32,000 bases of DNA, taken from Candidatus Saccharimonadota bacterium. Its GTDB lineage: Bacteria; Bacteroidota; Bacteroidia; Cytophagales; Amoebophilaceae. Position numbers and translations under genes: made by a program. The DNA lies in contig NZ_OZ034918.1 of the NCBI RefSeq assembly GCF_964030745.1, positions 60,001 to 92,000 on the forward strand, given 5' to 3'. Shown here one piece after another: positions 3,802 to 32,000 of the stretch. Under the pieces are notes generated by a model. That model was given only the letters and a program-made list of their open reading frames with translations. It did no database searches and had not been told where the DNA came from. The number at the start of each line of letters is the position of its first letter. Within the stretch, counting starts at the first letter, position 1.

Positions 3802-3841
3802 AAATAACACTGAATGCAATGCTCCATTAATATAAAATATG

Positions 3842-3878
3842 TGGATTGAGTGGGAAACTGAGTTTTCCACTCAATCCA
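3842..3878. terminator. bidirectional hairpin between convergent genes
   Basis: tggattgagtgggaaa-ctgag-ttttccactcaatcca forms a stem of about 15 bp with one mismatch. It sits between the stop of 1927..3801 (+) and the stop of 3905..5170 (-). Confidence 0.6.
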
Positions 3879-3904
3879 TTACCACTGCTAAGATTGGATT
3901 ATAG

Positions 3905-5469: not shown

Positions 5470-6814
5470 GAGTCTGTCTTTTAAAGTGTGTAAATAATTT
5501 TTAGGTTGTATATTCTTGAGCGTATATTTTACCCATTAAATTTATTTACACCGATGAAAAGAAAAGAGACACCCAAAGACGGCATAAGCAAGGCTATAGA
5601 TGTACTTGTAGACTCAGGCGTAGACCTCTCGACCCTATTTGATCAAGACGGTTTACTCAAACAATTAAGTAAGCGTCTTGTAGAAAAAGCATTAGAGTCA
5701 GAAATGGATAGCCATTTAGGCTATAACAAGCATGCTCGTAGTGATTCAGAGAATGCACGTAATGGATTATCCAGCAAGCAAGTTGTCACTGATAATGGGG
5801 TTATATCGGTTGAAGTTCCAAGAGATAGATCCTCTACTTTTGAACCTGTTTTATTACCTAAACGTCAAACAAGAATTCCTGGTCTAGATGACAAGATCTT
5901 ATCTCTGTATGCTAAAGGTATGAGCCTATCAGATATTCAGATTCAAATACAGGAATTATATGGTGCAGAAGTTAGTGAAAGCCTCATAAGTAACATCACA
6001 GATTCTGTTATTGAAGATGTTAAGATATGGCAAAATCGCCCATTAGAATCAGTCTATCCTATTGTTTTTTTTGATTGTTTTGTAGTTAAAGTTAGACAAG
6101 ATAAACGTATCATCAACAAGGCAGTCTATGTTGCTTTAGGTATAGATAGATCTGGCATAAAGGATGTTTTAGGTCTGTGGATGAGTGAAAATGAAGGAGC
6201 TAAATTTTGGTTAGGCAATTTAACAGAACTCAAAAATCGGGGTATGAACGATATGCTCATTGCATGTACAGATAACCTGCCAGGTATGTCTGAGGCAATC
6301 GCTGCTGTATACCCTAAAACAGATCACCAACTCTGTATTGTTCATGCCATTAGGAATAGTTTACAATATGTTTCTTATAAACATAGAAAGACATTAGCTG
6401 CTGATTTAAAGCCAATTTATACGGCAGTTACGGAAGAAGAAGCCCTGATGGCATTAGAAACTTTTGCTACTAAGTGGGACAAACAATACCCACAAATAGC
6501 CAAGTCTTGGTATGCTAATTGGAATAATCTGATCGTGTTTTTACAATATCCTAGTGCCATACGTAGGGTCATTTACACAACCAATGCCGTCGAATCTGTA
6601 AATAGCCAATTTCGTAGAGTTACCAAAAATAAAAGGGTCTTTCCTAACGATATAGCTGTGTTTAAAACATTATATTTAACTATTAACTACATGACTAGAA
6701 AATGGACCAGCTCGGTTCAAAATTGGAGTGAGGCTATGGCTCATTTTTTAATTAAATTCGAAAACAGAATCTAAAAACACTAAAAAATTATTTACACACT
6801 TAACTGGACAGAGC
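5470..6814 (+). mobile_element. IS256-family insertion sequence (about 1345 bp) with imperfect terminal inverted repeats and a 9-bp target duplication
   Basis: The left end gagtctgtcttttaaagtgtgtaaataatttttag and the reverse complement of the right end gctctgtccagttaagtgtgtaaataattttttag are imperfect inverted repeats. Direct repeat ccagtccag lies at 5461-5469 and 6815-6823. The element carries a single Mutator-type transposase ORF. Confidence 0.85.
5554..6774 (+). CDS. IS256-family (Mutator-type) transposase
   Basis: The protein has the typical IS256 layout: ALESEMDSHLGY...NGxxxKxVxTxxGxIxVxVPRDRxSTFEPxLLPKRQTR, then LSLYAKGMSLSDIQ, then the DDE region (VFFDCFVVKV ... ACTDNLPGMSEAI ... TTNAVESVN). 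The ATG at 5554 (MKRKETPKDG) is preferred over the TTG at 5506 listed in the ORF track. Confidence 0.9.
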   Translation: MKRKETPKDGISKAIDVLVDSGVDLSTLFDQDGLLKQLSKRLVEKALESEMDSHLGYNKHARSDSENARNGLSSKQVVTDNGVISVEVPRDRSSTFEPVLLPKRQTRIPGLDDKILSLYAKGMSLSDIQIQIQELYGAEVSESLISNITDSVIEDVKIWQNRPLESVYPIVFFDCFVVKVRQDKRIINKAVYVALGIDRSGIKDVLGLWMSENEGAKFWLGNLTELKNRGMNDMLIACTDNLPGMSEAIAAVYPKTDHQLCIVHAIRNSLQYVSYKHRKTLAADLKPIYTAVTEEEALMALETFATKWDKQYPQIAKSWYANWNNLIVFLQYPSAIRRVIYTTNAVESVNSQFRRVTKNKRVFPNDIAVFKTLYLTINYMTRKWTSSVQNWSEAMAHFLIKFENRI

Positions 6815-6938: not shown

Positions 6939-8128
6939 TGTAGTAGTTGATATTTAATCTGACATTTATTAATTTGTGTTGATATAAATACCGACTACTA
7001 TTATGAATTTACATCAAAAAATCATCAAGCCGAAAGTAGGCTTATTGGAGCTAGCAAAAACGTTGGGGAACATTTCATCGGCGTGTAAAACTATGGGTTA
7101 TAGTAGAGATAGCTATTATCGCTTCAAAGCCTTGTATGAAACAGGCGGTCAAGAGGCTTTACAAGAGATAAGCCGTAGGAAGCCGATTATGGCTAATAGA
7201 GTAGATCCTAGTATAGAAAAAGCAGTAGTAGATATGGCGATAGATTATCCAGCCTATGGCCAGCTTAGAGTATCTAATGAACTAAAGCAACAAGGTATCC
7301 TGGTCTCTCCTGGCGGTGTCAGGTCTATCTGGTTACGTAATGACTTAAATAATATAAAAAAACGTCTTAAAGCCTTAGAAGCTAAAATGGCTCAAGATGG
7401 CCTTGTTTTAACGGAATCTCAGCTATCCGCATTAGAAAAACGTAAGCATGAACAAGAAGCATGTGGAGAAATAGATACAGAACACCCTGGTTATTTAGGC
7501 TGTCAAGATACTTATTACGTTGGTAACTTTAAAGGGATAGGTAAGGTTTATACGCAAGTATTTATAGATAGTTATTCTCGGGTAGCTCATGCAAAACTCT
7601 ATACTGATAAGACAGCCTTGACAGCTGCTGATATGTTAAATGATAGAGTATTGCCTTGGTATCAAGAACAAAGCATACCCCTCTTGCGCATTCTAACAGA
7701 TCGTGGTACTGAGTATAAAGGTAAAATAGAGCATCATGCCTTTGAGTTGTTTTTAAGCATAGAAGGCATAGAACATACTGTTACTAAAGCCTATTCACCG
7801 CAAACCAACGGGTTCTGTGAGCGGTTTAATAAAACGATGAAACAGGAATTCTTTGATACAGCTATGCGTAAGAAGATCTATACAGACCTGGATGTCTTGA
7901 AACAAGATTTAGATAGCTGGTTACATTATTATAATCATGAGCGACCACATTCTGGAAAGTACTGTTACGGTAAAACGCCTATACAAACTTGGGAAGATAG
8001 TAAAAAACTAGCCTTTGAAAAAAATAATCAAATCGCGTATCTTAAGAGCATACCTGACAAACTAAACTTAACTGACATCTATACAGTCTAATTTTTACTG
8101 CCTGTCAGATTAAATATCAACTACTACA
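6939..8128 (+). mobile_element. IS481-family insertion sequence, copy 1, intact (1190 bp)
   Basis: Perfect 26-bp terminal inverted repeats: tgtagtagttgatatttaatctgaca (6939-6964) and tgtcagattaaatatcaactactaca (8103-8128). A 7-bp direct repeat aatgagt flanks the element at 6932-6938 and 8129-8135. Confidence 0.9.
7003..8091 (+). CDS. IS481-family transposase (HTH plus rve/DDE integrase core)
   Basis: 362-aa single ORF. N-terminal HTH ([36 protein letters not shown]). Integrase-core motifs follow: DTYYVG...[44 protein letters not shown]. Confidence 0.9.
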
Positions 8129-8542: not shown

Positions 8543-10210
8543 TTATTTTTTTAGATCTTTTACTTGTATTTCATACGCCCAGTCGTCTATCATTCTGGTT
8601 TCCTCATTGAAGTTAATGCCTAGTAGTATAATGGCTTTTTGTCTAAGTAAGTAAGGCTTATAATACCCGTTTGCTTTGATTTGGTCTAAGGCTATTTTGC
8701 CGCTGGATTTGTACTTTATTTCTATAATGTAAATGGCTGTTTCTAATTCTAAAACGATATCTGATCTGCCTTGACTGGAAGCAGATTCACTATACATTTG
8801 CATTCTCCTACCTCCTAGAAATCCCAACCCTTGCAGTAGCATATGTAAATTGCTGTGGTACTGCTTTTCTTGTTTCGTATCTAAGTAATAAGGAAGGGTT
8901 GAAAATACCGTATTGATGTGATCTATAAAGGTTTCAACTTTTTTATCAGATAATGCTTGTCTGATGGTATCGCGCTCGTGTATAAAGTAATCTTTTACGC
9001 TTTTTTCCAGACTAGACTGTATACTTTTCTGAAAAGACGCTTCTATTTCTTTATTGGGAAATTTTAATCTATATAGACCACTAGGTTCATCATAATGGTC
9101 AATGGTGAGATAGCCGGTTTGAAACATTAGAGACTTTAAACTAATCTCATTTCTACTTTCTGTATACATTAAGTCTTCTCTGACGGCCTCTATTTGGAGG
9201 TTGCCCATGTTAATATCAAACCTATCAGGATCTGCTAGCATTTGGTTAATGAGTAAGCTTGGACTACCTGACTCGTACCAGTAGTTGGCTAGTTCGCCAG
9301 AGTCTAAAAATCGTAGTGTAGACCATGGATTATACACACTTAGGCCATTCTGATGGAATCTATATCCATTGTAATAAGCCGCAATACGCTGCATTACTTC
9401 TGATTCAGTTATTTTTTTATTTTCTTTTTTGCTCCATTGCTCAGCAATATCTTCTAATTTTTTTGAGAATATAGTTAGGATTTCTTGTTGCGTATAACCA
9501 AACATGGCATCAGCAGATGCATCAATGGTAATATCTTTCAAATGATTAGCGCCTGAAAACACATCAGATAAACTAAATTTGCTTACCCCAGTGATAAAAG
9601 TAAATTGAAAATGTTTGTTGAGGGATTTCAAAGTCATAAAGAAATCTTTCATGACCTTGATGTTAGCTTTCTCTAGATCTGAGCCTTTTGTTAGATGAAC
9701 AATAGGTGCATCGTATTCATCTATAAGGACTACTATTCTAGGTTCATAAACAGATTGTATATTTTCCTTGTTGTCTATAGTATCTTCTAGATGTATCAGT
9801 TGTAACACTAGACTACGCAGTGCATCTTTAACAGTAACATCTTCTATTTTTACTTTATACGAAAAGGCTATTTCTTTTAATACCATTTTAATAGATGCGC
9901 TTAGCTCTTCGGGTGTGTTATTCGATACCCCTGAAAAGTCCAAATTAATCACCGGATATTTCTTCCAGTCATATCCATTTTCCGGTTTACCTATATGGTA
10001 ATCTTTAAAAACTTCTTGCTCGTCATTGCATATGGTAGCCAGTGTATCGATAAATAGAGACTTTCCAAATCGCCTAGGTCTAGCTATAAAGATAGGATTT
10101 CTTTTTTCAATCAATTCTTGTGCATATCTTGTTTTATCTACATAATAGCCTGTTTCAATGACTGATTTAACATCTGAATAGCCAATAGGCAGTGCATTTA
10201 TTTTACGCAT
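8543..10210 (-). CDS. AAA-ATPase_like (DUF1703-type) protein with a C-terminal PD-(D/E)XK (PDDEXK_9-type) nuclease domain
   Basis: The N-terminus LPIGYSDVKSVIETGYYVDKTRY...IFIARPRRFGKSLFIDTL is the characteristic start of the Bacteroidota predicted AAA-ATPase family. The C-terminus GRSDIVLELETAIYIIEIKY shows a D...E-x-K nuclease motif. The ATG lies 4 nt after the stop of the upstream gene. Confidence 0.8.
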   Translation of the reverse strand: MRKINALPIGYSDVKSVIETGYYVDKTRYAQELIEKRNPIFIARPRRFGKSLFIDTLATICNDEQEVFKDYHIGKPENGYDWKKYPVINLDFSGVSNNTPEELSASIKMVLKEIAFSYKVKIEDVTVKDALRSLVLQLIHLEDTIDNKENIQSVYEPRIVVLIDEYDAPIVHLTKGSDLEKANIKVMKDFFMTLKSLNKHFQFTFITGVSKFSLSDVFSGANHLKDITIDASADAMFGYTQQEILTIFSKKLEDIAEQWSKKENKKITESEVMQRIAAYYNGYRFHQNGLSVYNPWSTLRFLDSGELANYWYESGSPSLLINQMLADPDRFDINMGNLQIEAVREDLMYTESRNEISLKSLMFQTGYLTIDHYDEPSGLYRLKFPNKEIEASFQKSIQSSLEKSVKDYFIHERDTIRQALSDKKVETFIDHINTVFSTLPYYLDTKQEKQYHSNLHMLLQGLGFLGGRRMQMYSESASSQGRSDIVLELETAIYIIEIKYKSSGKIALDQIKANGYYKPYLLRQKAIILLGINFNEETRMIDDWAYEIQVKDLKK

Positions 10211-12374: not shown

Positions 12375-13421
12375 ATGAATTTACATCAAAAAATCATCAA
12401 GCCGAAAGTAGGCTTATTGGAGCTAGCAAAAACGTTGGGGAACATTTCATCGGCGTGTAAAACTATGGGTTATAGTAGAGATAGCTATTATCGCTTCAAA
12501 GCCTTGTATGAAACAGGCGGTCAAGAGGCTTTACAAGAGATAAGCCGTAGGAAGCCGATTATGGCTAATAGAGTAGATCCTAGTATAGAAAAAGCAGTAG
12601 TAGATATGGCGATAGATTATCCAGCCTATGGCCAGCTTAGAGTATCTAATGAACTAAAGCAACAAGGTATCCTGGTCTCTCCTGGCGGTGTCAGGTCTAT
12701 CTGGTTACGTAATGACTTAAATAATATAAAAAAACGTCTTAAAGCCTTAGAAGCTAAAATGGCTCAAGATGGCCTTGTTTTAACGGAATCTCAGCTATCC
12801 GCATTAGAAAAACGTAAGCATGAACAAGAAGCATGTGGAGAAATAGATACAGAACACCCTGGTTATTTAGGCTGTCAAGATACTTATTACGTTGGTAACT
12901 TTAAAGGGATAGGTAAGGTTTATACGCAAGTATTTATAGATAGTTATTCTCGGGTAGCTCATGCAAAACTCTATACTGATAAGACAGCCTTGACAGCTGC
13001 TGATATGTTAAATGATAGAGTATTGCCTTGGTATCAAGAACAAAGCATACCCCTCTTGCGCATTCTAACAGATCGTGGTACTGAGTATAAAGGTAAAATA
13101 GAGCATCATGCCTTTGAGTTGTTTTTAAGCATAGAAGGCATAGAACATACTGTTACTAAAGCCTATTCACCGCAAACCAACGGGTTCTGTGAGCGGTTTA
13201 ATAAAACGATGAAACAGGAATTCTTTGATACAGCTATGCGTAAGAAGATCTATACAGACCTGGATGTCTTGAAACAAGATTTAGATAGCTGGTTACATTA
13301 TTATAATCATGAGCGACCACATTCTGGAAAGTACTGTTACGGTAAAACGCCTATACAAACTTGGGAAGATAGTAAAAAACTAGCCGAGGCCGTTGCAATA
13401 GACCTTTACGATTTGCCATAA
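12375..13421 (+). pseudogene. IS481-family transposase truncated by the IS5 insertion
   Basis: The protein is identical to the copy 1 transposase through ...[10 protein letters not shown], then reads into IS5 sequence ([11 protein letters not shown], stop). The remaining codons ([25 protein letters not shown]) lie at 14696-14773. Confidence 0.9.
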
Positions 13422-14690
13422 AAAGTATCTTTTTATTTTTTAGAAGAAGGTAAAAAAAGGTTAAATTCTATTGATTTTTTTAGGTATTGATGCTTAAAAC
13501 TTTTAATAATATTGTGTATGTCGCTCAAGCAAACTAAGCAATTAAGTTTTTCAGATATTTCCGCCAATAAGCGTAAGTGCAAACACACTTTCTTTGATCA
13601 AATCAACAAGCTAGTTAATTGGTCAGTAGTAGAAAAAGCACTCCGATTACATTATCCTAAAGGTTTACGTTTATCAGGCAAACCGGCCTATAGTCCTCTG
13701 CTTCTATTCAAAATGCTATTGCTACAGACGTGGTATGGCTTGAGCGACTATGCAGTCGAAGAAGAAGTGAATGATCGTATCACTTTTAGCAGATTTTGTG
13801 GTATTTCGATGGATAGTTCTGTTCCAGATCATAGTGTACTAAGTAGATTTAGAACTACCCTTACAGAGAAGAATGCTTTAGAAAAGTTATTGCATATCAT
13901 TAATAATCAGCTATCTGATCATGGTGTATTGGTTCAAAACGGTTCAGCAGCTGTAGATGCTTCTATTACCCCTACCCCTAGACGCCCTAAAGGTAAAAAA
14001 AGCTACGATCTGCATGAAGATGGAACCATAACCACAGCTGAAAGTTATCAAAAAGGAGTAGATCCAGAAGCAAGTTGGATAAAAAAAGGCCATCATCTCT
14101 ACTATGGCTATAAGCGGCATGTTCTTGTGGAAAGCAAAGAGGGGTTGGTGCTAGCCGTAGGTACCACAAAAGCATCTAGTCATGATAGTGGGCATTTACA
14201 GGTATTATTGGATAAAGTAAGGCTAAAATCAGGCAGCAGACTCTATGCAGATAAAGGCTATAGCGGGTCGCCCAACGAAAATTTACTAAAGAAAAAGAAG
14301 TTAAAATCAGCTATTCAGAAAAAAGGGGCTAGAAACAATCCTTTATCACCCACTGCTAAACGGTTTAATAAATTAGTATCTAAAACGCGCTATAAAGTAG
14401 AACGGGTATTTGGAAGTATTAAAAGTTGGTTCCGTAGCTCAGGAGCCAGATATATAGGCCTTGCTAAAACCCATACGCAACATGTTATGGAGGCAATAGC
14501 CTATAACTTATATAGGTCCCCAAACATCATATTAAGAGGTATCTAGGGGAATGGTGTGTCCAAAATAGATTGAAAATGACTAAAAAATCAGTAAATAAAT
14601 AGTTTTATACCACTATAACATCAAATATGGCAAGGAAATAACCCTGGAAGATTAATCAAAATTATACCTTCAACCTATCACAACGGCCTC
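13386..14690 (+). mobile_element. IS5-family insertion sequence (about 1305 bp) nested inside IS481 copy 2
   Basis: Termini gaggccgttgcaatag (13386-) and ctatcacaacggcctc (-14690) are imperfect inverted repeats. tagcc is duplicated at 13381-13385 and 14691-14695. Comparison with the uninterrupted copy 1 (tagcc at 8009-8013) defines the insertion exactly: 1310 bp including the duplication. Confidence 0.9.
13518..14546 (+). CDS. IS5-family DDE transposase
   Basis: The N-terminal DUF772-like region (GKPAYSPLLLFKMLLLQTWYGLSDYAVEEEVNDRITFSRFCGI...VPDHSVLSRFR) is followed by a DDE_Tnp_1-like region (VDASIT ... YADKGYSG ... RYKVERVFGSIKSWF...ARYIGLAK...AIAYNL). The ATG at 13518 is preferred over the TTG at 13512. 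Confidence 0.9.
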   Translation: MSLKQTKQLSFSDISANKRKCKHTFFDQINKLVNWSVVEKALRLHYPKGLRLSGKPAYSPLLLFKMLLLQTWYGLSDYAVEEEVNDRITFSRFCGISMDSSVPDHSVLSRFRTTLTEKNALEKLLHIINNQLSDHGVLVQNGSAAVDASITPTPRRPKGKKSYDLHEDGTITTAESYQKGVDPEASWIKKGHHLYYGYKRHVLVESKEGLVLAVGTTKASSHDSGHLQVLLDKVRLKSGSRLYADKGYSGSPNENLLKKKKLKSAIQKKGARNNPLSPTAKRFNKLVSKTRYKVERVFGSIKSWFRSSGARYIGLAKTHTQHVMEAIAYNLYRSPNIILRGI

Positions 14691-14798: not shown

Positions 14799-15179
14799 TC
14801 AACTACTACACATAATATCTTCCAAAGGGTAGCCCTTGAGAAGCATAGCCTTAGCTATCTCTAGCTTCCCTTTCTCTTCCCCTATACGGATACCCTCTTG
14901 TCTTCCTATTTTTTCACCCTCTAGCTTGCCCTCTAGCTTTCCTGCTAGTCGCGCTTTCTTTTCAGCTTTCTCTATTGTATTGGCTTCTATTCTTAGCCAT
15001 TTCAAGTGATCTTCATAAGCCATTCTTTCTTCATCGGTAAAGTTCATCGTCTCTAAAACATGCAATGCCTTTTTTAGGCTGTCGTTATCCAAGGGTTGAG
15101 GTAAGTTATCTTTGTTGAGGAGATCGTTGCGGGTAAGAAAAGCAGTCCAAATGTCTAGTGCGTTTTTTATCTTTGTCAA
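14799..15179 (-). pseudogene. C-terminal fragment of an Rpn-family / PD-(D/E)XK_2 putative transposase-nuclease
   Basis: The ORF contains only the C-terminal helical part typical of this family (DIWTAFL..., FTDEERMAYEDHLKWLRIEANTIE, then the EGxKxGxxEGxxxG repeat and IAKAMLLKGYPLEDI). The N-terminal nuclease domain is absent. The last residues and the stop (MCSS, stop) are read from the IS481 terminal repeat, so the 3' end is cut by the IS. It has a TTG start only, and stops lie immediately upstream. Confidence 0.6.
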
Positions 15180-15287: not shown

Positions 15288-17363
15288 TTAACAGATCCCC
15301 TCACAAACCTGTAGTGCCTGGTTTGCTGCCTGCACCAATTCTTCTACGATTTTAGCATTCAAATATTTTTTCCCAAGTTCAACATCTATCGTAAGGGTTT
15401 CTTGGGCCATATATTTCACCTCTTCCAGGTAGATATAATCTTTGGCATGACGTAAATCATAAAGCCTTTCAGCAAATTTAATGCAAAGTATAAAAAGCTG
15501 TTCTCGGTTGATGATGCGTTTAAGGCGATTACCAACATAAAGCCCACATGGCTCCATCTCTTCACGTTTATTCACTGCGACAATGCTTTCTACAAAAGAA
15601 TAAACATCCACGCTATAATTGGCTTTCACATAAGCAAGCGGTAAACCTGCATAACGCACCAAACCATACAACACACTGAAATAAACTGGCCTTGGTTGGT
15701 AAGGTACCCATTCTGCTACCAGCTGGGCAATACCTAACGCACGGATATAAAACAATTGTCCTGATGCATGCCGCCTAAAACCATAACAACGCCTGATCAG
15801 CAAGAAAAGCTCATCCAATACAATCGTGCGCATATCAGCCGTTGTACAAAGATTGTGATAGGCCTGCGTTAATGTTACCATAGACTCCTTAAACTCCCTA
15901 TAGGCAATAGCAGGATCTGAGGGTAGTATCCTGGAAATCATTTCATCCCGTACAGCCGCTACATTACAAGGCACCACAATAAGCATAGGCCTCTTATGAG
16001 AGGTTGGGAATTGTACATAACCATAGTGGATACGGACAATTCGTTCTATATTTCGTTTTTCTACATTTGTCCACTCTGATGCTTGCTGCGACATATTGTG
16101 CCAATTCAACGCACTACCTACTGTAACATCTTGATAAACAGACTTAACCGTAGGTAATAACGATTCAGACATAGCAGCATGGCTAATCAGCAGTGCTATA
16201 GCAGGAAAACAGACATCTGTAGTAGTGCTTCCTTTAGCAGAGGCCCGTGCACTATACCTTAGAGAGGTAATATGTAATCGAATACGTACAAAGCCATCTT
16301 TTGAACCATCTAGGCTGGCCATACTTAAAATAATAGGAGTCAGCAAGGCAATCATCTGATTCACATCACATATAATCTTCTCGGGAAACTGATCGCCCTT
16401 AGGCTCTATAAACAACTTGGGAACAGAACGCCCCTTATTTTCCAAGTCTAATGCAGCTTCTACCTTTCGAATCAGCTCATCAAGGTGCACTTCAGTTGGT
16501 ATTAAAATAATATGGTTCCTAGACCTAGCCCGTTGCTTTAGAAAAATGTCCCAAATCACAAAATTTTTAGTAATAAGATCTAAATCTTCCTTATAAAGCG
16601 GTCTAGTATCTACATAGGAGATAAATTTTGTAACCTCTTTCATGATTTGATCTATAAAAGCATGTGCTTCCTGCGGATTATTGCGAATCGTTCCCAGATC
16701 CGAGTATAGTCCAGCCCCTGCTTGCCTTTGCTCCTGCTCTTTTGTTTGTTGTTCTTGTATTTTATTGCTTAAATAATGGCCATAATATTTATAACCAGCT
16801 AGTTTACGCTTGTTATAAACAATAATAAAAAAAATCATTAGGCCTAATCCCAGCAGAGAGATTAACAAGCCAGCTGATGCCAACAGTTCTGCTGTATCGA
16901 TGTTATAGATTGCGTAAGAAATTGCTAATAATGTCAAGGCTACCAACTTTATGCTTATGTATAAGGGTAATACGGATAAGGTTACAGATAAATGGGCTAC
17001 AGATAAAGCCAATGTAAAAGCAGATGGAAGATGCACTACACCTGACCAATTCCAAAGTAGATGGATAGGCAGACAAAAAACCACACTTATCAACCAACGT
17101 CGACCAATCTTCCAAGATGGAGTTGCCTTCTTAGAATCTATTGCATAACCTATGAGCGAAATAGCCGTAATAAATTGCAGTAAGTACCAATAGACAAAAC
17201 CTTCGCTTGCATAATCTAATATAGTAGTGGATATAACGTAACACCCTACAAATCCCATAATAGCATCGCTTGACTTAAGCTTAGCCAATCTTTCTTTTGT
17301 AGAGGAAGACTTTAGCAGCAACAATATTAATATTATTGCAAAAGGTAGCATACTAAACGACAT
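15288..17363 (-). CDS. multi-pass membrane protein with a degenerate histidine-kinase-like module and a degenerate RelA/SpoT-type HD module (paralog 1)
   Basis: 691-aa ORF with an ATG at 17361-17363. The N-terminal roughly 190 aa are hydrophobic, with several predicted TM helices. The middle has an H-box-like FISYVDTRPL and a HATPase-like layout (EVHLDELIRKVEAAL ... IICDVNQMIALLTPIILSMA ... IERIVRIHYGYVQFP ... LIVVPC). The C-terminus aligns with the SpoT hydrolase domain (RRHASGQLFYIRALGIAQLVAEW / VLYGLVRY / ILCIKFAERLYDLRHAK / MAQETLTIDVELGKKY). Confidence 0.85.
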   Translation of the reverse strand: MSFSMLPFAIILILLLLKSSSTKERLAKLKSSDAIMGFVGCYVISTTILDYASEGFVYWYLLQFITAISLIGYAIDSKKATPSWKIGRRWLISVVFCLPIHLLWNWSGVVHLPSAFTLALSVAHLSVTLSVLPLYISIKLVALTLLAISYAIYNIDTAELLASAGLLISLLGLGLMIFFIIVYNKRKLAGYKYYGHYLSNKIQEQQTKEQEQRQAGAGLYSDLGTIRNNPQEAHAFIDQIMKEVTKFISYVDTRPLYKEDLDLITKNFVIWDIFLKQRARSRNHIILIPTEVHLDELIRKVEAALDLENKGRSVPKLFIEPKGDQFPEKIICDVNQMIALLTPIILSMASLDGSKDGFVRIRLHITSLRYSARASAKGSTTTDVCFPAIALLISHAAMSESLLPTVKSVYQDVTVGSALNWHNMSQQASEWTNVEKRNIERIVRIHYGYVQFPTSHKRPMLIVVPCNVAAVRDEMISRILPSDPAIAYREFKESMVTLTQAYHNLCTTADMRTIVLDELFLLIRRCYGFRRHASGQLFYIRALGIAQLVAEWVPYQPRPVYFSVLYGLVRYAGLPLAYVKANYSVDVYSFVESIVAVNKREEMEPCGLYVGNRLKRIINREQLFILCIKFAERLYDLRHAKDYIYLEEVKYMAQETLTIDVELGKKYLNAKIVEELVQAANQALQVCEGIC

Positions 17364-17733: not shown

Positions 17734-19074
17734 ATGTTAGGTTTGTACCATATACGCAGGGCAATAAGAGTAGGCTTTCCTTGTTTTACGTTACTAACGG
17801 CTGCTCATGTAGGATTGGCAAAACAGGAAAAAAATAAGCAAACGGCTGTTGTAGCGCCTACAATACAAAAAGTAGTACCTGATGTCGACAAAGCTAACAT
17901 TGCTAATAAAAACAAGCTGCAAAGTGATCTAGAAGCTGAAAATGCACTCAATCGAGCACGTTTGGAAAAACAACTCTCCACCATCATTGCTCAAATTGAG
18001 CAGCTTCGCCTTGAAAAAGAACGTCAACGCCTAGACAAGGAGATAGAGGATGAAAATGTACGCAGGGAGCATGACAAAGAGATGCGTTTGCTCAACATGA
18101 AAAGGGAAAAACTGGCCATCAAACTAGAACTAGCAAAAGTTAAGTTAATGATGCAAATGGAACAGTATGACAGTCAATTGCTTAAAATTGGGAAAAAAAT
18201 AGAATTAGAAAAAGGAGAAACACAACTACTACAAGAAGCTGCCCATCGATTACAAGCAGAAATGGAAACCTTACAGGCCCAAGCAGCGCGAGACAAGCAT
18301 ATTCAAAAAAAGCCTATTTACCTAAAAGACCCATTGATCAAGAAAAGCAATACCTTAGTCCTTTCGGATCGATGCATTGACTTAAATGGGGCGATTACAC
18401 CTTGGAAGGCAAATTACATTGTAGATCAAATTCACTATTTTAATAATAAAAGTAATGAATACCCTATATTTTTGGTCATTGGTGATTCCCCAGGCGGGTA
18501 TATAAGTGCAGGGTGGAATATTTTACAAGCAATAGAACATAGCAAAGCACCTGTTTACGTGGTTGTAAAAACATGCGCCGCTTCTATGGCAGCTATGATT
18601 ACCACATTGGCCACTAAATCTTATGCTTATCCAAATGCTAAAATCCTACATCATCAGCCCTTTTCCTGCGTTTGGGGTAATCTCAGAGAAACCAAAGAGC
18701 ATTATGAGCAGCTTAATGAAATCTGGAAACGTTTAGGAAGTAGGGTAGCTAAAAAAATGGGTATATCGCTTGCAGCATTTGATAAAAAGCTCTACGAGAA
18801 GTCTATGTATGGGGACTGGATGGAGTATGGTAACAAAGCTAAAAAGCTTAAATGGGTCGATTACGTAATTGATGGTATTCAAAATAGTGCGGTAAGCAGC
18901 CTACCAGAAGCAGTCAACTATACTTTCGAACAATTTATAAAGCACCATTATGGCTTTGATGCTGGAAAAGGAAAGGAACAATCTTCAGAAGAGGAATATT
19001 ACCAAGCGCTAGCGCCTCACGATTTTGACTATAGGCACAGACCTGGTCGAAAAGATCAGATAGTGACTAAGTAA
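17734..19074 (+). CDS. secreted or membrane-anchored ClpP-like (S14/ClpP-crotonase fold) serine protease with a long N-terminal coiled coil
   Basis: 446 aa. The N-terminus carries a hydrophobic signal-like segment (FPCFTLLTAAHVGLA). Residues from about 60 to 190 are heptad-rich and charged (LEAENALNRARLEKQLSTIIAQIEQLRLEKERQRLDKE...). The C-terminal half follows the ClpP pattern: IDLNGAI...IFLVIGDSPGGYISAGWNILQAI...VKTCAASMAAMI...AKILHHQP...GDWMEYGNKAKKLKWVDYVI. Confidence 0.8.
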   Translation: MLGLYHIRRAIRVGFPCFTLLTAAHVGLAKQEKNKQTAVVAPTIQKVVPDVDKANIANKNKLQSDLEAENALNRARLEKQLSTIIAQIEQLRLEKERQRLDKEIEDENVRREHDKEMRLLNMKREKLAIKLELAKVKLMMQMEQYDSQLLKIGKKIELEKGETQLLQEAAHRLQAEMETLQAQAARDKHIQKKPIYLKDPLIKKSNTLVLSDRCIDLNGAITPWKANYIVDQIHYFNNKSNEYPIFLVIGDSPGGYISAGWNILQAIEHSKAPVYVVVKTCAASMAAMITTLATKSYAYPNAKILHHQPFSCVWGNLRETKEHYEQLNEIWKRLGSRVAKKMGISLAAFDKKLYEKSMYGDWMEYGNKAKKLKWVDYVIDGIQNSAVSSLPEAVNYTFEQFIKHHYGFDAGKGKEQSSEEEYYQALAPHDFDYRHRPGRKDQIVTK

Positions 19075-19343
19075 CAAGTTGTTACAAGTCGATGTGGTTG
19101 CTCAATATCTAATTGACGCTAATTTTACGCACGCTGTCTCATCCAACCTCCTCAGAAAAAACGAACCTTGGAAGAATTGCCAATCATTCAATATTGAAAA
19201 TCCCTCCCCCAGTAGTAAATTATCCAATACAGATACTAAATTTTTGAAACAATCCAACTAAAATACTTGAATTTATTCTTATAATTTTATTATGTTGCAT
19301 CATATTTTATAATGCGTTTAAGTAACTCGTAATTTGTTTGACG

Positions 19344-21533
19344 ATGTCATCCCATATACCTTTCCTCATGGCATTACCCTTTTTGCTATTGGTCCTGATA
19401 GTGGCTTATTACCTTAAGCAAAGTGCGGCTCCATCTGGAGAGCATAGTCTAAACCACAAACAATTTGCTTATGAAATCAAAGCCATTCAACACGCCATTA
19501 GGCGTACAAAACGTCGCATCAAACAATCGTTGCAAGCCACTTCTATACAAGAAAGATTGGCTAAACTACGGCCCAGTGATGCGATAATTGGATGTACAGG
19601 ATGTTACGTTCTGCTTACCACAATATTGGACTATATAAGTGGAGGACTGACCATTTACTGGTATATATTCCAATTTTTTATAGGCATTTGGCTAATAGGT
19701 TATGGAATTGCAGCAAAAAAAAATGTCCCATCTTGGAAAATTGGTCGGTCTTGGCTCATATGCACCATTCTTTGCCTTCCTGTAAATATATTTTGGCACT
19801 GGTTTCATCTCCATGATCCTCAATTTGCCCTAACTTTATCTGTGGGGCATTTATCTGCCACTTTATTTGTTTTACCACTGTATATTAGCATAAAACTGGT
19901 TGTGACTACACTAGTAGTAATTTTGTATGCGATCTACAACATAGGTGTAGATCAGCTATTGGCTTCAAGTGATTCTTTACTCTCTCTACTAGGATTTGGC
20001 TTAATCGTTTTTGCCATTATTATTTACAATAAACGCAAAATAACTGCCTATACGCTGTACAATCGCTACTTAAAAAATCAAGTAAACCTAACAGAAAACA
20101 AAAACCATAAACCTATACAAACGCATGCCAACGCCCATTTGGACAATGCAAGTCAAAACCCATCAGACAGTGGGCCTTCTGTAGAAAAAACGATGCAGGG
20201 CGTTACTGACTTTATGTCATATTTAGATAATAAACCGCTTTACCAGCAAGACATTGAAAGTATTATCAACAACTTTATCACTTTTACTACTTTTTTAAAG
20301 CAGCGCGCCAGATCGATAGACCATATACCATTAGCACCAAATGAGATTACTATAGCTGAATTGATCTCCAAGCTAGAGACCACACTAGAAGGTAGGGCCT
20401 CATCAACTCCAAAACTGGTGGTAGAAATAAAAAACAATGCTATTCCTAAAAAAATCACATGTGATATCAATCATATGATCCAAGCATTGGTGCCTATTGT
20501 TTTACGTACCGCTAATCCAGCTATTTCAAAAGGTGATTCTGTAAACATTCAATTACATCCCACTCACTTAAAGTATACCCAAAAGCATAGTCCAAAAGTC
20601 CACCCAGAAATGCGCTTTCCAGCTATAGCACTGGTAATCAGCAACACTACTACCCCTGCCACGATACTACCACAAATTAAAAATGATTATGAGGATATTA
20701 CAGAGGGTAGGGCGCTTAAATGGCATAGCAGTCAGACAAACTTAGAGCGGATACAAGCTGAAAAGCATATCATAGAACGAGCAGTTCGTGCCCACTATGG
20801 TTACCTACGCTTTCCTATTTCTCAAAAAAGGGCTATGTTAATGGTATTGCCTTGTGATGTAGTGCAAATTCGAGATGCAATGATCGCCCAAATACCCTCT
20901 TTACATGTTCCTATTACCCAAAAAGAAATTGATCAATCGATGGAAGTATTTGTGAGATCTTATAATCACCTTTTAGAAATATCCGAAGCACGTAAAGCTG
21001 TATTAGATGAAATATTGCTATTGACCAGAAGATGCTATGGTTTTAGACGTCACCCATCAGGGCAACTCTTGTACATTCGCGCAATAGGTATTGCACAATT
21101 GGTTGCAGAATGGATACGATTTTATCCAGAGCCCATTTACGTTGTTTTACTTTATGACTTAGTCCATTATGCAGATTTACCACTTGCTTATATTAAGGCC
21201 AATTATGATCTGAGTATCTACTCTTTTATAGAGAGCATTTTAGCAGTACATGACCGTCAAAGCATGGAGCCATGTGGGCTGTATATTGGAAATGCGCTTA
21301 AACAGGTAATCAACCGGGAGCAACTTTTTGTGCTTTGCATTAAACTAGCTGAACGGCTTTATGACCTACGGCATGCGAAAAGCTATACCCAGCTAGATGA
21401 GCTAAGGTATATGGCCCAAGAAACCCTTACGATAGATATTGAACTGGCCAAAAAATATTTAAATGCTAAAATTGTAGAAGCATTGGAAAATGCAGTGGAA
21501 CAGGCACTACAAGTTTGTGAAAACAATAGCTGA
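19344..21533 (+). CDS. multi-pass membrane protein with a degenerate histidine-kinase-like module and a degenerate RelA/SpoT-type HD module (paralog 2)
   Basis: 729 aa from the ATG at 19344; the ORF track starts at a TTG two codons upstream. It is collinear with paralog 1 throughout. Manual alignment gives about 70 percent identity over the last 160 or so residues, and less in the membrane and central parts. It has an extra N-terminal insert of about 40 aa. Confidence 0.85.
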   Translation: MSSHIPFLMALPFLLLVLIVAYYLKQSAAPSGEHSLNHKQFAYEIKAIQHAIRRTKRRIKQSLQATSIQERLAKLRPSDAIIGCTGCYVLLTTILDYISGGLTIYWYIFQFFIGIWLIGYGIAAKKNVPSWKIGRSWLICTILCLPVNIFWHWFHLHDPQFALTLSVGHLSATLFVLPLYISIKLVVTTLVVILYAIYNIGVDQLLASSDSLLSLLGFGLIVFAIIIYNKRKITAYTLYNRYLKNQVNLTENKNHKPIQTHANAHLDNASQNPSDSGPSVEKTMQGVTDFMSYLDNKPLYQQDIESIINNFITFTTFLKQRARSIDHIPLAPNEITIAELISKLETTLEGRASSTPKLVVEIKNNAIPKKITCDINHMIQALVPIVLRTANPAISKGDSVNIQLHPTHLKYTQKHSPKVHPEMRFPAIALVISNTTTPATILPQIKNDYEDITEGRALKWHSSQTNLERIQAEKHIIERAVRAHYGYLRFPISQKRAMLMVLPCDVVQIRDAMIAQIPSLHVPITQKEIDQSMEVFVRSYNHLLEISEARKAVLDEILLLTRRCYGFRRHPSGQLLYIRAIGIAQLVAEWIRFYPEPIYVVLLYDLVHYADLPLAYIKANYDLSIYSFIESILAVHDRQSMEPCGLYIGNALKQVINREQLFVLCIKLAERLYDLRHAKSYTQLDELRYMAQETLTIDIELAKKYLNAKIVEALENAVEQALQVCENNS

Positions 21534-25000: not shown

Positions 25001-27490
25001 TTGAAAAAATTTGCAGATGTTATACTACCGCTTCCCATTAAGCCTTTAACCTACCATATTCCCCTACTATACCAAAGTATGGTAGCTATAGGCAGCAGTG
25101 TACTCGTACCATTACGTAACGGTAAGCTATTGTTGGCTGTTGTTTTGAAATGCCATTGCACAGCCCCCACCTACCCCACCAAGGATGTATTAGGAGTAAT
25201 CTACTCAACACCCCTATTTACACACAAACAATTGGCATTCCTAGAATGGATGGCGGATTATTACCTATCCACCCTAGGGGAAACCTTATCCATGGCATGG
25301 CCCAAATTCCTCAACCTCCCTAACCATGTAGTCTTTCAAGTCAATAGGCCTACTAACCAAAATGAAACATCAACCAACGAACAAGCCATTAGCCCTTTTT
25401 CGAAAGCTTCAACAACAAAATTGCCCTTAGAAATGGAATTTGGAGAGCGGGCTATTATCAATGCGCTACAATACCAACCCTTATCTTATAAATCCATTAT
25501 TCAACTCATGGTGCCAAAAGAAGCCAATAAGGCGCTTATCTCCTTACTATCTAAAAACTGGATCCGGGCAACTGCCACAGTCGCCATCGATCCGACCGAT
25601 GAGGACAATCCCTATTTTACCCTCTCTCCTACCCTCGATCTAAAGCGCCTTACCATCACTCAGCTAGCACCACGATCTGCCCAACAACAAGCCCTTCTAG
25701 CTTATTTATTATCCAACAAAGGTAAGTTCATCCAATATGCTTCTAAACAAGAGCTTGTAGCTTATTCCAAGTCTGCCTTTCACACGCTGTTAAAGAAAGG
25801 TATTTTAATAAAAGCCAATCTAAACCAGTTACCCGTATCAACTTTTACAGAACCCTTAGCACCATTAGCTACCTTAACCACATTTCAAAACAAAGCATTC
25901 ATAGATATACAAACAGCGTTTGCTAAAAAAGCAGTTGTACTCCTACACGGTGCAATAGGCAGCGGCAAAACAGAGTTGTATATGCATTTGATTGCATCCA
26001 CCTTGCGCCAGCAAAAACAAGTATTGCTTTTAGTGCCAGAAATAGGTTTGGTAACACATATAGTAGAACGCATCAGACCTTTCTTAGGAGACTGGTTGGT
26101 GGTGCACCATTCGAAACAATCACATAAAGAACGTTTAAAGACATGGTCACGTGTGTTACACCACCCCCCTTTATTGGTAATAGGCACACGCTCTGCCGTT
26201 TTACTACCTTTTAAGGCGCTACAACTCATTATTGTCGATGAAGAGCACGACCCTGCCTATAAACAACAGGATGCAATGCCTACCTATCATGCACGAGAGA
26301 GCAGCATTCTATTGGCCCAACAGCATCAAGCAAACGTTTTACTAGGTTCGGGCACACCTTCGGTAGAAAGCTATTATAATGCCCAATCTGGAAAGTATGG
26401 TCTAGTAACACTAGGCCATAGATTTGGCTCCGCAAGCCCTCCTAAATTATTTTTTATTGACTTAAATATAGAAAAAAAGCGTAAAGCGATGCGCGAGAAT
26501 TTCTCGCTTACGCTGCTATCTAAGCTCCAAACTAATAATATAGAAGGTGGCCAAGCGATGATTTTTCAAAACAGAAGAGGGTATGCCCGCTATTTTTTAT
26601 GTGCCGCTTGTGGATGGATTCCCCGCTGTCTTACTTGCGCAGTAAGCCTTACCTACCACCAAGAAGTGCATCAACTACGCTGTCATTATTGCGACTATGC
26701 TACGCCTCCTTTTGGGTCATGTAACCATTGTGGATCACACCAACTACATAGCATAGGGTTTGGTACAGAAAAACTAGAAGAGAGCTTACAACTTATTTTT
26801 CCGGAACAAAAGATTGGTCGTATGGATTTAGATAGCACAAAAGGGAAAAGCAGCTACCAATCCATTTTAAAAGCAGTCACCTCAGGGTCAATAGATATTT
26901 TAGTAGGCACGCAGATGATGGCGAAAGGGTTGGATTTGGCCAATATACGCCTAATAGGCATACTAGACATAGATGGGCTGCTTTACTTTCCTGATTTTCG
27001 ATCCAACGAAAAATGTTTTCAACTGATTACACAGTTAGCAGGAAGAGCAGGTAGACGCAACCAACAAGGCAGTGTGTTTATTCAAACCAGTCAGACCCAT
27101 CATCCTTTGTTTGCATACCTAGCCAATGGTGACTACGAAGGAATGTATAAATCTGAATTAGCAGAAAGAAAGCGATTTCTATACCCCCCCTATATTAGGC
27201 TGATTAAACTAAGCCTAAGTTGTACCAACGCCTCCACGCTGCAATCAGGAGCCATTGCACTAAAAACCATATTAGAACAACAGTTTGGGAGCATGGTACT
27301 AGGCCCTCAAAAACCATTGGTTGATAAGGTTAGAAATCATTTTTTACTAGATCTATTTTTAAAAATAACCAGTAAAAATGCAAATAGTTTACAAAACACC
27401 AAAGCAGCCTTAAAGAGCGCTTGTAAACATACACTGGGTAAAGGACCACATAGAAATATAAAAATAGTATTAGATATTGATCCGATTTAA
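25001..27490 (+). CDS. priA: primosomal protein N' (replication restart helicase PriA)
   Basis: The N-terminus FADVILPLPIKPLTYHIP is the typical PriA start. Walker A is GAIGSGKTELY, and the DEEHD box is present. The Cys-rich zinc region reads CAACGWIPRCLTCAVSLTYHQEVHQLRCHYCDY...CNHCGS. The helicase C-terminal motifs are VGTQMMAKGLD and AGRAGR. The only in-frame start after the upstream stop (24983-24985) is the TTG at 25001. Confidence 0.9.
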   Translation: MKKFADVILPLPIKPLTYHIPLLYQSMVAIGSSVLVPLRNGKLLLAVVLKCHCTAPTYPTKDVLGVIYSTPLFTHKQLAFLEWMADYYLSTLGETLSMAWPKFLNLPNHVVFQVNRPTNQNETSTNEQAISPFSKASTTKLPLEMEFGERAIINALQYQPLSYKSIIQLMVPKEANKALISLLSKNWIRATATVAIDPTDEDNPYFTLSPTLDLKRLTITQLAPRSAQQQALLAYLLSNKGKFIQYASKQELVAYSKSAFHTLLKKGILIKANLNQLPVSTFTEPLAPLATLTTFQNKAFIDIQTAFAKKAVVLLHGAIGSGKTELYMHLIASTLRQQKQVLLLVPEIGLVTHIVERIRPFLGDWLVVHHSKQSHKERLKTWSRVLHHPPLLVIGTRSAVLLPFKALQLIIVDEEHDPAYKQQDAMPTYHARESSILLAQQHQANVLLGSGTPSVESYYNAQSGKYGLVTLGHRFGSASPPKLFFIDLNIEKKRKAMRENFSLTLLSKLQTNNIEGGQAMIFQNRRGYARYFLCAACGWIPRCLTCAVSLTYHQEVHQLRCHYCDYATPPFGSCNHCGSHQLHSIGFGTEKLEESLQLIFPEQKIGRMDLDSTKGKSSYQSILKAVTSGSIDILVGTQMMAKGLDLANIRLIGILDIDGLLYFPDFRSNEKCFQLITQLAGRAGRRNQQGSVFIQTSQTHHPLFAYLANGDYEGMYKSELAERKRFLYPPYIRLIKLSLSCTNASTLQSGAIALKTILEQQFGSMVLGPQKPLVDKVRNHFLLDLFLKITSKNANSLQNTKAALKSACKHTLGKGPHRNIKIVLDIDPI

Positions 27491-31270: not shown

Positions 31271-32000
31271 CTATTGCTTGAAACCGGACTCTTCAATCTC
31301 ATATTGTTTAATTTTTCGATAAAGCGTTCTTTCAGAGATCCCTAAATCATCAGCTGCACTTTTACGATTTCCATGGTTTTTTTGTAAAGACCTACGAATC
31401 AATGCTTGTTCTTGGGCTTCCATAGAAAGGTTTTCGGCTGTATAGGGCGTGTTGATGCAATTTAAATCATCTTCTTTAAAGGATTGTGCTGTGTCCAAAA
31501 AATGGATCTTTTTGGATGTATTTACTTGATCACTGTAGGCTCCAAGGCGTGTATGCTCTTTTATAATGGGGCTTTTCATGGAACCAGACTCCATAAAATT
31601 AAGCATTAATGCTTTTAATTCTGTAACCTCTCTTTTCAAGTCAAAGAGGATAGGGTAAATGTATTCTTTCTCAATCAGCTCATTATCTTGCCATTTCTTA
31701 TAAAGTACTGGTAACGTATGGCTTTGCACTTTCGGTAAATATTTTTCTATTACTTTTGGAGTAGCCATCGCTACCCCTTCGAGTAATGACATTTGCTCCA
31801 CAATATTTTTCAGTTGACGGATATTACCTGGAAATGAATAGCCACACAAAATATCTTTTGCATCTGAGCTGATTTCTAACGGTTTAACACGGTATTTAGT
31901 GGCAAAATCACTAGAAAACTTATGAAATAATTGTATAATATCTGCACCCCGTTCGCGCAGAGGGGGTATATGAATCGGAACAGTATTGAGTCTATAATAC
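31271..32000 (-). CDS. sigma-54-dependent transcriptional activator (AAA+ domain C-terminal part plus Fis-type HTH), 5'-truncated by the window edge
   Basis: The minus-strand frame is open to position 32000: YYRLNTVPIHIPPLRERGADIIQLF...ILCGYSFPGNIRQLKNIVEQ (equivalent to the WPGNVRELxN motif). The C-terminal HTH is GNRKSAADDLGISERTLYRKIKQY. The M listed at 31849 in the ORF track is an internal TTG. Confidence 0.85.
   Translation of the reverse strand, partial: YYRLNTVPIHIPPLRERGADIIQLFHKFSSDFATKYRVKPLEISSDAKDILCGYSFPGNIRQLKNIVEQMSLLEGVAMATPKVIEKYLPKVQSHTLPVLYKKWQDNELIEKEYIYPILFDLKREVTELKALMLNFMESGSMKSPIIKEHTRLGAYSDQVNTSKKIHFLDTAQSFKEDDLNCINTPYTAENLSMEAQEQALIRRSLQKNHGNRKSAADDLGISERTLYRKIKQYEIEESGFKQ

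Follow-up and report, generated by a model that had tools for sequence, protein, structure and literature searches.

We propose that two paralogous genes in the stretch of DNA analyzed here, a window of 32,000 nucleotides (positions 60,001 to 92,000 of contig NZ_OZ034918.1, forward strand), probably encode conserved double pseudoenzymes, that is, non-catalytic, membrane-anchored regulators or scaffolds that have lost the core of a sodium:solute symporter (SSF). These genes, which we call par1 and par2, are 53% identical over 673 aa and share one architecture, in which a membrane region is followed by a histidine kinase (HK)-like module and then by a module resembling the HD hydrolase domain of SpoT; the database homologs of par2 begin at its Met3 or Met11. 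The closest database proteins of both all come from Candidatus Cardinium endosymbionts (Bacteroidota, Amoebophilaceae), with par2 orthologs in Cardinium spp. showing 63–100% identity. Cardinium is an endosymbiont of insects and mites and a widespread manipulator of arthropod reproduction; it is not culturable, and its signaling is known from genomes only. A first-pass annotation of the window had held that every recognizable catalytic residue in both modules is replaced, and that the replacements are shared by the two paralogs and hence older than their duplication. The motif strings and coordinates on which it relied are correct, including the par1 strings FISYVDTRPL, YIRALG, YG, RY and AERLYD, and most of its argument survives our analysis, albeit with an important correction in the kinase-like part.

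The C-terminal module has the HD fold seen in RSH (RelA/SpoT homolog) hydrolases and the RSH order of motifs. Pfam HD_4 (PF13328) matches par2 below its gathering threshold (E 3e-5, 24.3 bits versus 27.2) and leaves par1 unmatched, while the paralogs P0025, P0027, P0029–31, P0049, P0053 and P0056 reach 28–37 bits. A phmmer search with the module finds Rel of B. subtilis (8acu, E 0.0055; 6yxa, E 0.013), E. coli SpoT scores 27 bits against the family HD profile, and the HD side of an AlphaFold2 (AF2) model of whole par2 retrieves RelSeq (1vj7, E 3.5e-4), Rel of T. thermophilus and B. subtilis, and SpoT in Foldseek, with the Rel/SpoT matches spanning E 3.5e-4 to 1e-2 at a TMt of ~0.45. The phmmer alignment to Rel and the alignment of the family profile to E. 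coli SpoT agree on the register, and both uphold the replacements proposed earlier. Read against SpoT, R39 corresponds to H572 in par2 and to His in par1; H48, the His of 'HP' and the first metal-binding His, to R581 and Arg; H72 to Y606 and Tyr; D73 to D607 and Gly; E76 to H610 and Arg; D77 to Y611 and Tyr; D139 to E672 and Glu; H142 to Y675 and Tyr; and N143 to D676 and Asp. Of the four Mn2+ ligands (the His of HP, the His and the Asp of the HD dyad and the Asp of DRxHN), par2 has thus lost three and par1 every one. The catalytic residues have gone too, the ED pair being HY in par2 and RY in par1, the Arg of RxSGEP being His and the Asn of DRxHN being Asp. To say that "every" catalytic residue is gone was nevertheless a slight overstatement: nearly all are, but the Ser-Gly of RxSGEP and R140 (R673 in par2) are kept, as is D607 in par2.

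The same replacements recur in other Cardinium species. When one genome from each species was scanned by pattern and read through the HD alignment, 66 copies came from seven Cardinium species; the pattern included 'AERL', so that it returned dead-HD copies only and the counts for E139 and R140 are circular. At the H48 position Arg is found in 58 of the 59 copies that cover it, at the H72 position Tyr in 61 of 61, at the H142 position Tyr in 65 of 66 and at the N143 position Asp in all 66, while the D73 position varies between Glu, Gly and Asp. The replacements thus constitute a fixed alternative set rather than the outcome of random decay. Each ~1.1-Mb genome yielded 5–15 of these dead-HD copies. 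The Cardinium proteins of the family form four groups, those of the par1 and par2 types, a third short type and a numerous long type of ~1,180 aa, in which a sodium:solute symporter domain (PF00474) precedes the same membrane, kinase-like and HD parts. About 30 of the 66 are symporter-fused and full length (~1,190 aa). The set H/R/Y/E/Y/D is common to all four groups, the symporter-fused paralogs included, which bears out the earlier proposal that catalytic loss predates the duplication and has since been maintained.

The middle module is blank in Pfam and NCBIfam, which for par1 and par2 give nothing but the sub-threshold HD_4 match of par2, and its nature is shown by fold and profile instead, both of which give it the DHp-CA fold (dimerization and histidine phosphotransfer; catalytic and ATP-binding) of histidine kinases. 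The AF2 model of whole par2 (mean pLDDT 64.5) divides into a helical membrane region that ends at residue 256, an ill-defined segment (253–333), an alpha/beta domain (335–520) and a helical domain (528–730), and in Foldseek it matches the DHp-CA regions of histidine kinases in the PDB (RetS with E 3e-4, CckA, the CA domain of ThkA, HK853 and phytochrome kinase-related domains). When the middle module was modeled by itself (aa 272–522), block-mean pLDDT was 63–91 at module residues 61–170, fell to 31–55 over the ATP-lid region (171–230) and returned to 81 in the final strand. This model gave 58 PDB matches at E<=1e-3, and the top 50 are all histidine kinases (RetS with E 4.5e-6, ZraS, CckA, HK853, WalK, BceS). 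In hhalign, 23 family modules aligned collinearly over 218–237 columns with a set of six kinases (HK853, its sequence verified against 2c2a, and E. coli PhoR, EnvZ, CpxA, BaeS and PhoQ), scoring 28.8 versus 12.3±1.5 (maximum 16.6) for 40 column-shuffled controls. Conserved landmarks of the CA-like domain align with kinase motifs: the invariant C375-D376 with the Asp at the start of the N-box helix, the invariant Y451 with the F-box Phe, and H486-Y-G-Y489 with 'HGG'.

What the module lacks is the equipment of a kinase. The two Asn positions of the N-box are Pro and Arg in par2 and Pro and Ser in par1, the Asn being kept only in the distant relatives P0070, P0073, P0080 and P0083; the G1 segment 'DNGIGI' aligns to 'SNTTTP' and the G2 segment is free of glycine, and neither the G1 (DxGxG) nor the G2 (GxGxG) box is present in any of the 25 family members tabulated. 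The profile-profile alignment thereby confirms what had been noted of these boxes from the letters. A conserved phospho-acceptor His is missing as well: no column between aa 236 and 328 carries His in more than 7 of 23 family members, and the sole conserved His near the DHp part is H329 of the DHp-CA junction, present in 21 of 23. Since the conserved phospho-acceptor His, the N-box Asn and the G1 and G2 boxes are all missing, the kinase-like module cannot be expected to bind ATP or to autophosphorylate.

Relatives of the family allow the losses to be ordered. P0074, P0080 and P0083, found via the middle-module profile, match HD_4 with E 1e-26 to 1e-30, and P0074 and P0080 equal SpoT at all 16 tabulated positions, save for Leu at P44 in P0080; P0073 and P0082 have intermediate HD motifs. 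A copy on plasmid p_B of the Cardinium of Dermatophagoides farinae (CP101108.1, NMK33_06420; 2207–4513 of the retrieved locus) has the canonical motifs YTHP, LLHDVVED and ADRLHN, and therefore intact-HD and dead-HD copies coexist within the genus. The same plasmid copy has an 'AHGGY' variant of the kinase-like module; the symporter portion upstream of it is a CDS of its own in the annotation, in a different frame. As relatives with fully canonical HD motifs exist, the HD residues were lost within the par1/par2 family, and because the intact-HD relatives (P0074, P0080 and the plasmid copy) are already without G1 and G2, the kinase boxes went long before them. The events can thus be put in order: the ATP-lid boxes were lost early, the death of the HD domain followed as a single event that preceded the split of the Cardinium groups, and par1 and par2 are younger still. 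The ancestral architecture is an SSF followed by an extra membrane region, an HK-like DHp-CA module and a SpoT-type HD (p)ppGpp-hydrolase domain. By tblastn against plasmids, an intact relative is 39–40% identical to Rickettsiales plasmid proteins and 37–38% to SpoT of Azospirillum and E. coli, a margin too small to assign the family to the rickSpo subgroup. The middle module was found only in Cardinium and Amoebophilaceae-like sequences, by word-index and exhaustive searches alike.

Neither par1 nor par2 has a Pfam match to the SSF core (PF00474, ~13 transmembrane helices), which is found in the long paralogs; sodium:solute symporter, PutP and HD-domain protein are the names that these bear in annotation. 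What remains upstream of the kinase-like module in par2 is homologous to the membrane region that follows the symporter in the long forms, and its last helix reaches into the cytoplasm. Ahead of it, aa 6–44 of par2 align with aa 5–43 of the long paralog P0029 (BLASTP, 31% identity, pairwise E 1e-4; MAFFT agrees on the placement), and although support for this in par2 itself is weak, the N-terminus is probably a relic of the first transmembrane helix of the symporter. Another family member, the metagenome-derived P0049 (736 aa), has lost the symporter core through a clean internal deletion, its residues 1–37 and 42–93 matching residues 1–40 and 469–518 of a long paralog (E 3e-7 and 1e-10). This deletion shows that short forms arise repeatedly through removal of the core, and we infer that par1 and par2 derive from a long form in the same manner. 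An outgroup SSF-kinase was sought with the symporter and membrane part of P0029; this returned 269 cluster representatives, the best 120 of which are all Cardinium members or metagenome sequences, every named one among these 120 being Cardinium.

Both genes are evidently under strong constraint. Nei-Gojobori ratios of nonsynonymous to synonymous substitution (dN/dS) against the orthologs from the Cardinium of Oedothorax gibbosus, at dS 0.47–0.88, are 0.159 for the whole of par2 and 0.219 for the whole of par1. Within par2 they amount to 0.165 in the membrane part, 0.30 in the linker and DHp part, 0.25 in the CA-like domain and 0.066 in the HD-like domain, and the HD-like domain of par1 gives 0.144, so that the most constrained part of either protein is its catalytically dead HD domain. 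Gene order is also kept in that genome (par1 on the minus strand, then a ClpP-like gene and par2 on the plus strand, a sugar dehydratase, MutY and an exonuclease), with two insertion sequence (IS) elements inserted ahead of par2 and the open reading frames (ORFs) intact, and genes of the par2 type occur in seven of the seven species genomes scanned. Strong purifying selection on both genes thus supports their being conserved pseudoenzymes rather than dying genes. The verdict of the first-pass annotation, a pseudoenzyme and not a recent pseudogene, is well supported by the intact ORFs in other Cardinium species, by the low dN/dS and by the particular constraint on the HD module.

It is conceivable, of course, that the middle module has nothing to do with kinases and is an unrelated alpha/beta sandwich whose structural match to CA domains reflects convergence. 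An exhaustive HMMER search with the module profile returned no canonical kinase among 45 matches, and the Foldseek TM-scores are modest (0.33–0.45). Several further observations weigh against our interpretation at this and other points. Pfam HisKA and HATPase_c match none of 13 family members even at E<=10; the HMMER profile of the middle module finds ThkA only among all PDB sequences, with E 0.19; and the DHp part has a pLDDT below 50, its hhalign match not being significant by itself (E 0.08), so that dimerization through this low-confidence hairpin is an assumption. Moreover, par2 retains D607 and has E672, and metal binding is thus still possible in principle, while the tie of the ClpP-like gene to par1 and par2 is purely positional, with IS elements intervening in the Cardinium of Oedothorax gibbosus. 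Convergence nevertheless strikes us as very improbable, given that the top 50 structural matches are without exception DHp-CA kinases, that the profile-profile alignment is collinear across the hairpin, the N-box helix, the G1 strand, the F-box and the 'HGG' strand at a score far above that of shuffles, and that in distant relatives the aligned position still holds the N-box Asn. A different question is whether the string FMSYLDNKPL (20211–20240), which had been read as a degenerate H-box with Tyr295 (20220–20222) in place of the phospho-acceptor His, is an H-box at all. Locally S-Y-L-D-x-K-P-L does resemble S-H-E-L-R-T-P-L, with S and P-L in agreement, and the weakness of the DHp alignment leaves no H-box register statistically secure. 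Yet each of four independent placements (HMMER against ThkA, hhalign of the full module, hhalign of the DHp part alone, and AF2) puts SYLD at the turn that joins the two DHp helices, and in the model FMSYLDNKPL covers this hairpin turn and the last part of DHp helix 1 (H10–25/H29–54 in module numbering, with helix 1 ending at residue 296); Tyr295 lies 42 residues from the first CA strand, versus 67 for His260 of HK853; and its position is occupied by Phe in the third short group and the SSF-fused paralogs. We therefore consider a His-to-Tyr exchange at this site unlikely. The H-box equivalent would instead lie ~22 residues upstream of SYLD, at about S272-Q273 (±3), in a variable linker with an AF2 pLDDT below 50, where hhalign aligns the His with Q273 in par2 (N270 if shifted by three) and with N228 in par1; in the N270 register DNASQNP reads against SHELRTP with agreement of the Pro at +5. 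This register is itself uncertain by a few residues because the DHp-only similarity is not significant. Hence the earlier alignment held for the HD module, whereas that of the H-box has moved upstream, still without meeting a His, and of the claim about the phospho-acceptor only the absence of a conserved His stands. In P0070, a distant relative of 471 aa, a segment 'SSHDQVYKTL' at ~200–215 precedes the first CA strand by 61–63 residues, a distance close to that of a canonical H-box, and may represent a surviving H-box; it has no Pfam HisKA match, and MAFFT places the segment differently.

Two further alternatives concern the proteins as a whole. In one of them par1 and par2 are still enzymes, either because the pocket H572/R581/Y606/E672/Y675/D676 supports some other, possibly metal-independent reaction or because the CA-like domain binds nucleotide in a non-canonical way. 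That the replacement residues are conserved as strictly as a catalytic site would be, and that the HD module has the lowest dN/dS, could be read in its favor. The changes at the canonical metal ligands and the glycine-free lid region, unstructured in the model, argue otherwise, and we know of no HD-superfamily chemistry that employs this residue set; on balance, such retained activity appears distinctly improbable. In the other, the two genes are decaying remnants of symporter-fused genes, comparable to the truncated copies in Cardinium. Some 18 of the 66 genomic copies are indeed truncated or fragmented, par1 and par2 are themselves without the symporter core, and a 2025 Cardinium paper describes 81 SSF/HD-domain fragments in one strain as candidate MITEs (miniature inverted-repeat transposable elements; PMC12039267). 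The idea is hardly credible, however, and largely refuted by full-length ORFs free of stops both in the window and in the orthologs, by the presence of the par2 type in all seven species genomes, by dN/dS of 0.16–0.22 at dS of up to 0.88 and by the kept synteny.

If par1 and par2 are indeed conserved pseudoenzymes, their role would be a non-catalytic one, that of dimeric regulators or scaffolds anchored in the membrane. Dimerization would probably be provided by the DHp-like hairpin, on the assumption discussed above, and could possibly include the SSF-fused paralogs; the heterodimerization of RetS offers a plausible analogy, in which the symporter-less par1 and par2 would modulate the long paralogs. 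The HD-like domain would probably offer a closed pocket or else a conserved surface for binding. The presence of Arg where a metal ligand used to be, close to a Glu, an Asp and two Tyr, suggests a putative metal-free, salt-bridged pocket, in which the guanidinium of Arg581 would take the place of the metal and pair with E672 and D676. Ancestrally, as the symporter-fused relatives with an intact HD domain suggest, the family may have coupled the transport or sensing of a solute to alarmone hydrolysis, with the HD domain being repurposed in Cardinium. One could go further and picture the dead HD domain as a receptor that binds, without cleaving it, an alarmone-like nucleotide or a phosphorylated metabolite and signals through the pseudo-kinase dimer to the membrane, in which case the family would be a symbiont-specific group of "transceptors" with par1 and par2 as transporter-less subunits heterodimerizing with symporter-fused paralogs. 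We regard this extension as speculative and, as it stands, rather doubtful. Were it true, the expanded family would couple the supply of host-derived solutes to the control of bacterial growth.

The features of the locus are collected in the table. The ClpP-like gene, which lies between par1 and par2 and from which, as from par2, par1 is divergently oriented, encodes a protein of 446 aa with an N-terminal hydrophobic anchor or signal, a coiled coil of ~140 aa and an S14 protease fold that keeps the Ser ('CAASMAAM') and His ('ILHHQP') motifs; its dN/dS is 0.21 and its location is kept in a second Cardinium species. An operon coupling it to par2 was considered and set aside; in the Cardinium of Oedothorax gibbosus two IS elements separate the two genes. 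No receiver domain was found in the ClpP-like ORF or among the 20 further window ORFs of at least 100 aa scanned, a set that excludes the PriA-like ORF at 25001..27490 and two antisense ORFs.

Coordinates of par1, par2 and the intervening gene in the window, with the features recognized in each (aa numbering of the respective protein)
Feature	Position	Strand	Basis or remark
par2	19338..21533	+	731-aa ORF, TTG start
par2 aa 6-44, probable relic of SSF transmembrane helix 1	19353..19469	+	BLASTP and MAFFT
par2 aa 66-256, membrane region, ~6 helices	19533..20105	+	AF2 helices 81-256, pLDDT 70-86; family alignment
par2 aa 269-276 (DNASQNPS), H-box equivalent	20142..20165	+	hhalign; eroded, without His
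par2 aa 281-325, DHp-like helical hairpin (low-confidence prediction)	20178..20312	+	AF2; hhalign, collinear with DHp of HK853, EnvZ, PhoR
par2 aa 335-522, CA-like alpha/beta domain (Bergerat/GHKL fold)	20340..20903	+	AF2, Foldseek, hhalign
par2 aa 375-394, N-box equivalent, CDINHMIQALVPIVLRTANP	20460..20519	+	Asn positions are P386 and R390
par2 aa 540-725, RelA/SpoT-type HD (HD_4) hydrolase-like domain	20955..21512	+	Pfam, Rel structures, SpoT, Foldseek
par2 R581, for SpoT H48	21078..21080	+	SpoT alignment
par2 Y606-D607 for the HD dyad, H610-Y611 for the ED pair (YDLVHY)	21153..21170	+	SpoT alignment
par2 E672-R-L-Y675-D676, for D-R-x-H-N	21351..21365	+	SpoT alignment
par1	15288..17363	-	691-aa ORF, architecture as par2
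par1 aa 227-482, HK-like (DHp-CA-like) module	15918..16685	-	profile match and motif table
par1 aa 500-685, HD-like domain	15309..15866	-	H532/R541/Y566/G567/R570/Y571/E632/Y635/D636
ClpP-like gene	17734..19074	+	Pfam CLP_protease, E 7.6e-24

The window is otherwise rich in IS elements (5506–6774, 7003–8091, 12375–13421, 13512–14546 and 14799–15179), comprising a Mutator-family transposase, two rve/HTH_29 integrase ORFs with near-identical Pfam domain profiles, a DDE_Tnp_1 transposase and, immediately upstream of par1, a PDDEXK_2 transposase fragment. At 8543–10210 on the minus strand it carries an AAA-ATPase_like plus PDDEXK_9 protein of the DUF1703 type, which is given in the 2025 Cardinium paper as the other family of proliferating fragments (PMC12039267). 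A contractile-injection-system tape-measure protein (PF19268, E 1.8e-39) at 56–1732 on the plus strand is presumably part of the secretion system of phage origin that has been described in Cardinium and Amoebophilus. Finally, 31271–31849 on the minus strand encodes the C-terminal part of a sigma-54-type transcriptional activator (AAA lid and Fis-type HTH_8), a gene that probably extends past the start of the listed ORF.

Several percent of a 1.1-Mb genome is taken up by this family, whose annotation reads 'spoT' or 'proline/glucose transporter'. Most of its copies are predicted to be unable to hydrolyze (p)ppGpp, and they carry a cryptic dead kinase module; the stringent-response capacity of these symbionts should consequently be read differently from what the annotation implies. 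Furthermore, one lineage here offers a natural series, which starts with an HD domain that is intact next to a dead kinase, continues with one that is partly dead and ends with one that is fully dead and has a fixed residue set. A second series leads from symporter-bearing to symporter-less forms. Both suit the study of how pseudoenzymes originate and are retained.

The family as such is already known. The RSH survey of Atkinson et al. recorded an expansion of rickSpo[H] in Amoebophilus, with 15 RSH genes (PMC3153485), and Brown et al. described an expanded 'spoT ... sodium glucose cotransporter' family with 18 copies in Amoebophilus and 2–7 in Cardinium (PMC6232779), which is the same gene family as that of par1 and par2. 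Where they deal with these genes, the passages concerned in PMC6232779 and PMC12039267 treat them as spoT homologs or MITE-like fragments and make no mention there of catalytic loss, of fixed replacements, of a kinase-like module or of a symporter-less pair. Neither inactive HD domains (as in RelA) nor pseudo-kinases (as in RetS and phytochrome) are new as concepts; what is new is their combination in a single protein. The N-terminal HD domain of RelA, RelA[hS] in the RSH classification, is inactive (PMC3153485), and it resembles that of par1 and par2 in being an RSH-type fold that has lost its hydrolytic residues and is retained under constraint in a non-catalytic capacity. In RelA, however, the dead HD domain is fused to an active synthetase and to TGS/ACT and acts on the ribosome, whereas par1 and par2 have no synthetase domain, are embedded in the membrane and carry the fixed set R/Y/E/Y/D for H48/H72/D139/H142/N143. 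The small alarmone hydrolases (Mesh1, rickSpo[H]) and the SpoT/Rel hydrolase domains share the fold and the order of motifs with them, and P0074, P0080 and the plasmid p_B copy are canonical in this respect, but par1 and par2 have lost the metal ligands.

On the kinase side, the best structural matches are RetS and the HK-related domains of plant phytochromes, which have the DHp-CA fold and signal without canonical autophosphorylation. RetS, which acts through heterodimerization with GacS (as in the title of PDB entry 7n0e), differs in that it keeps recognizable HisKA and HATPase_c motifs, whereas Pfam does not see the module of par1 and par2, from which the N, G1 and G2 boxes are missing. In sensor kinases of the CbrA/CrbS type an N-terminal SSF is fused to a cytoplasmic HK module; these kinases have their H, N and G boxes intact, include a PAS domain and work with a cognate response regulator. 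The fusion of an SSF to an HK-type module is thus common to both, but the par1/par2 family differs from the CbrA/CrbS type in its extra membrane region, its dead kinase module and its C-terminal HD domain.

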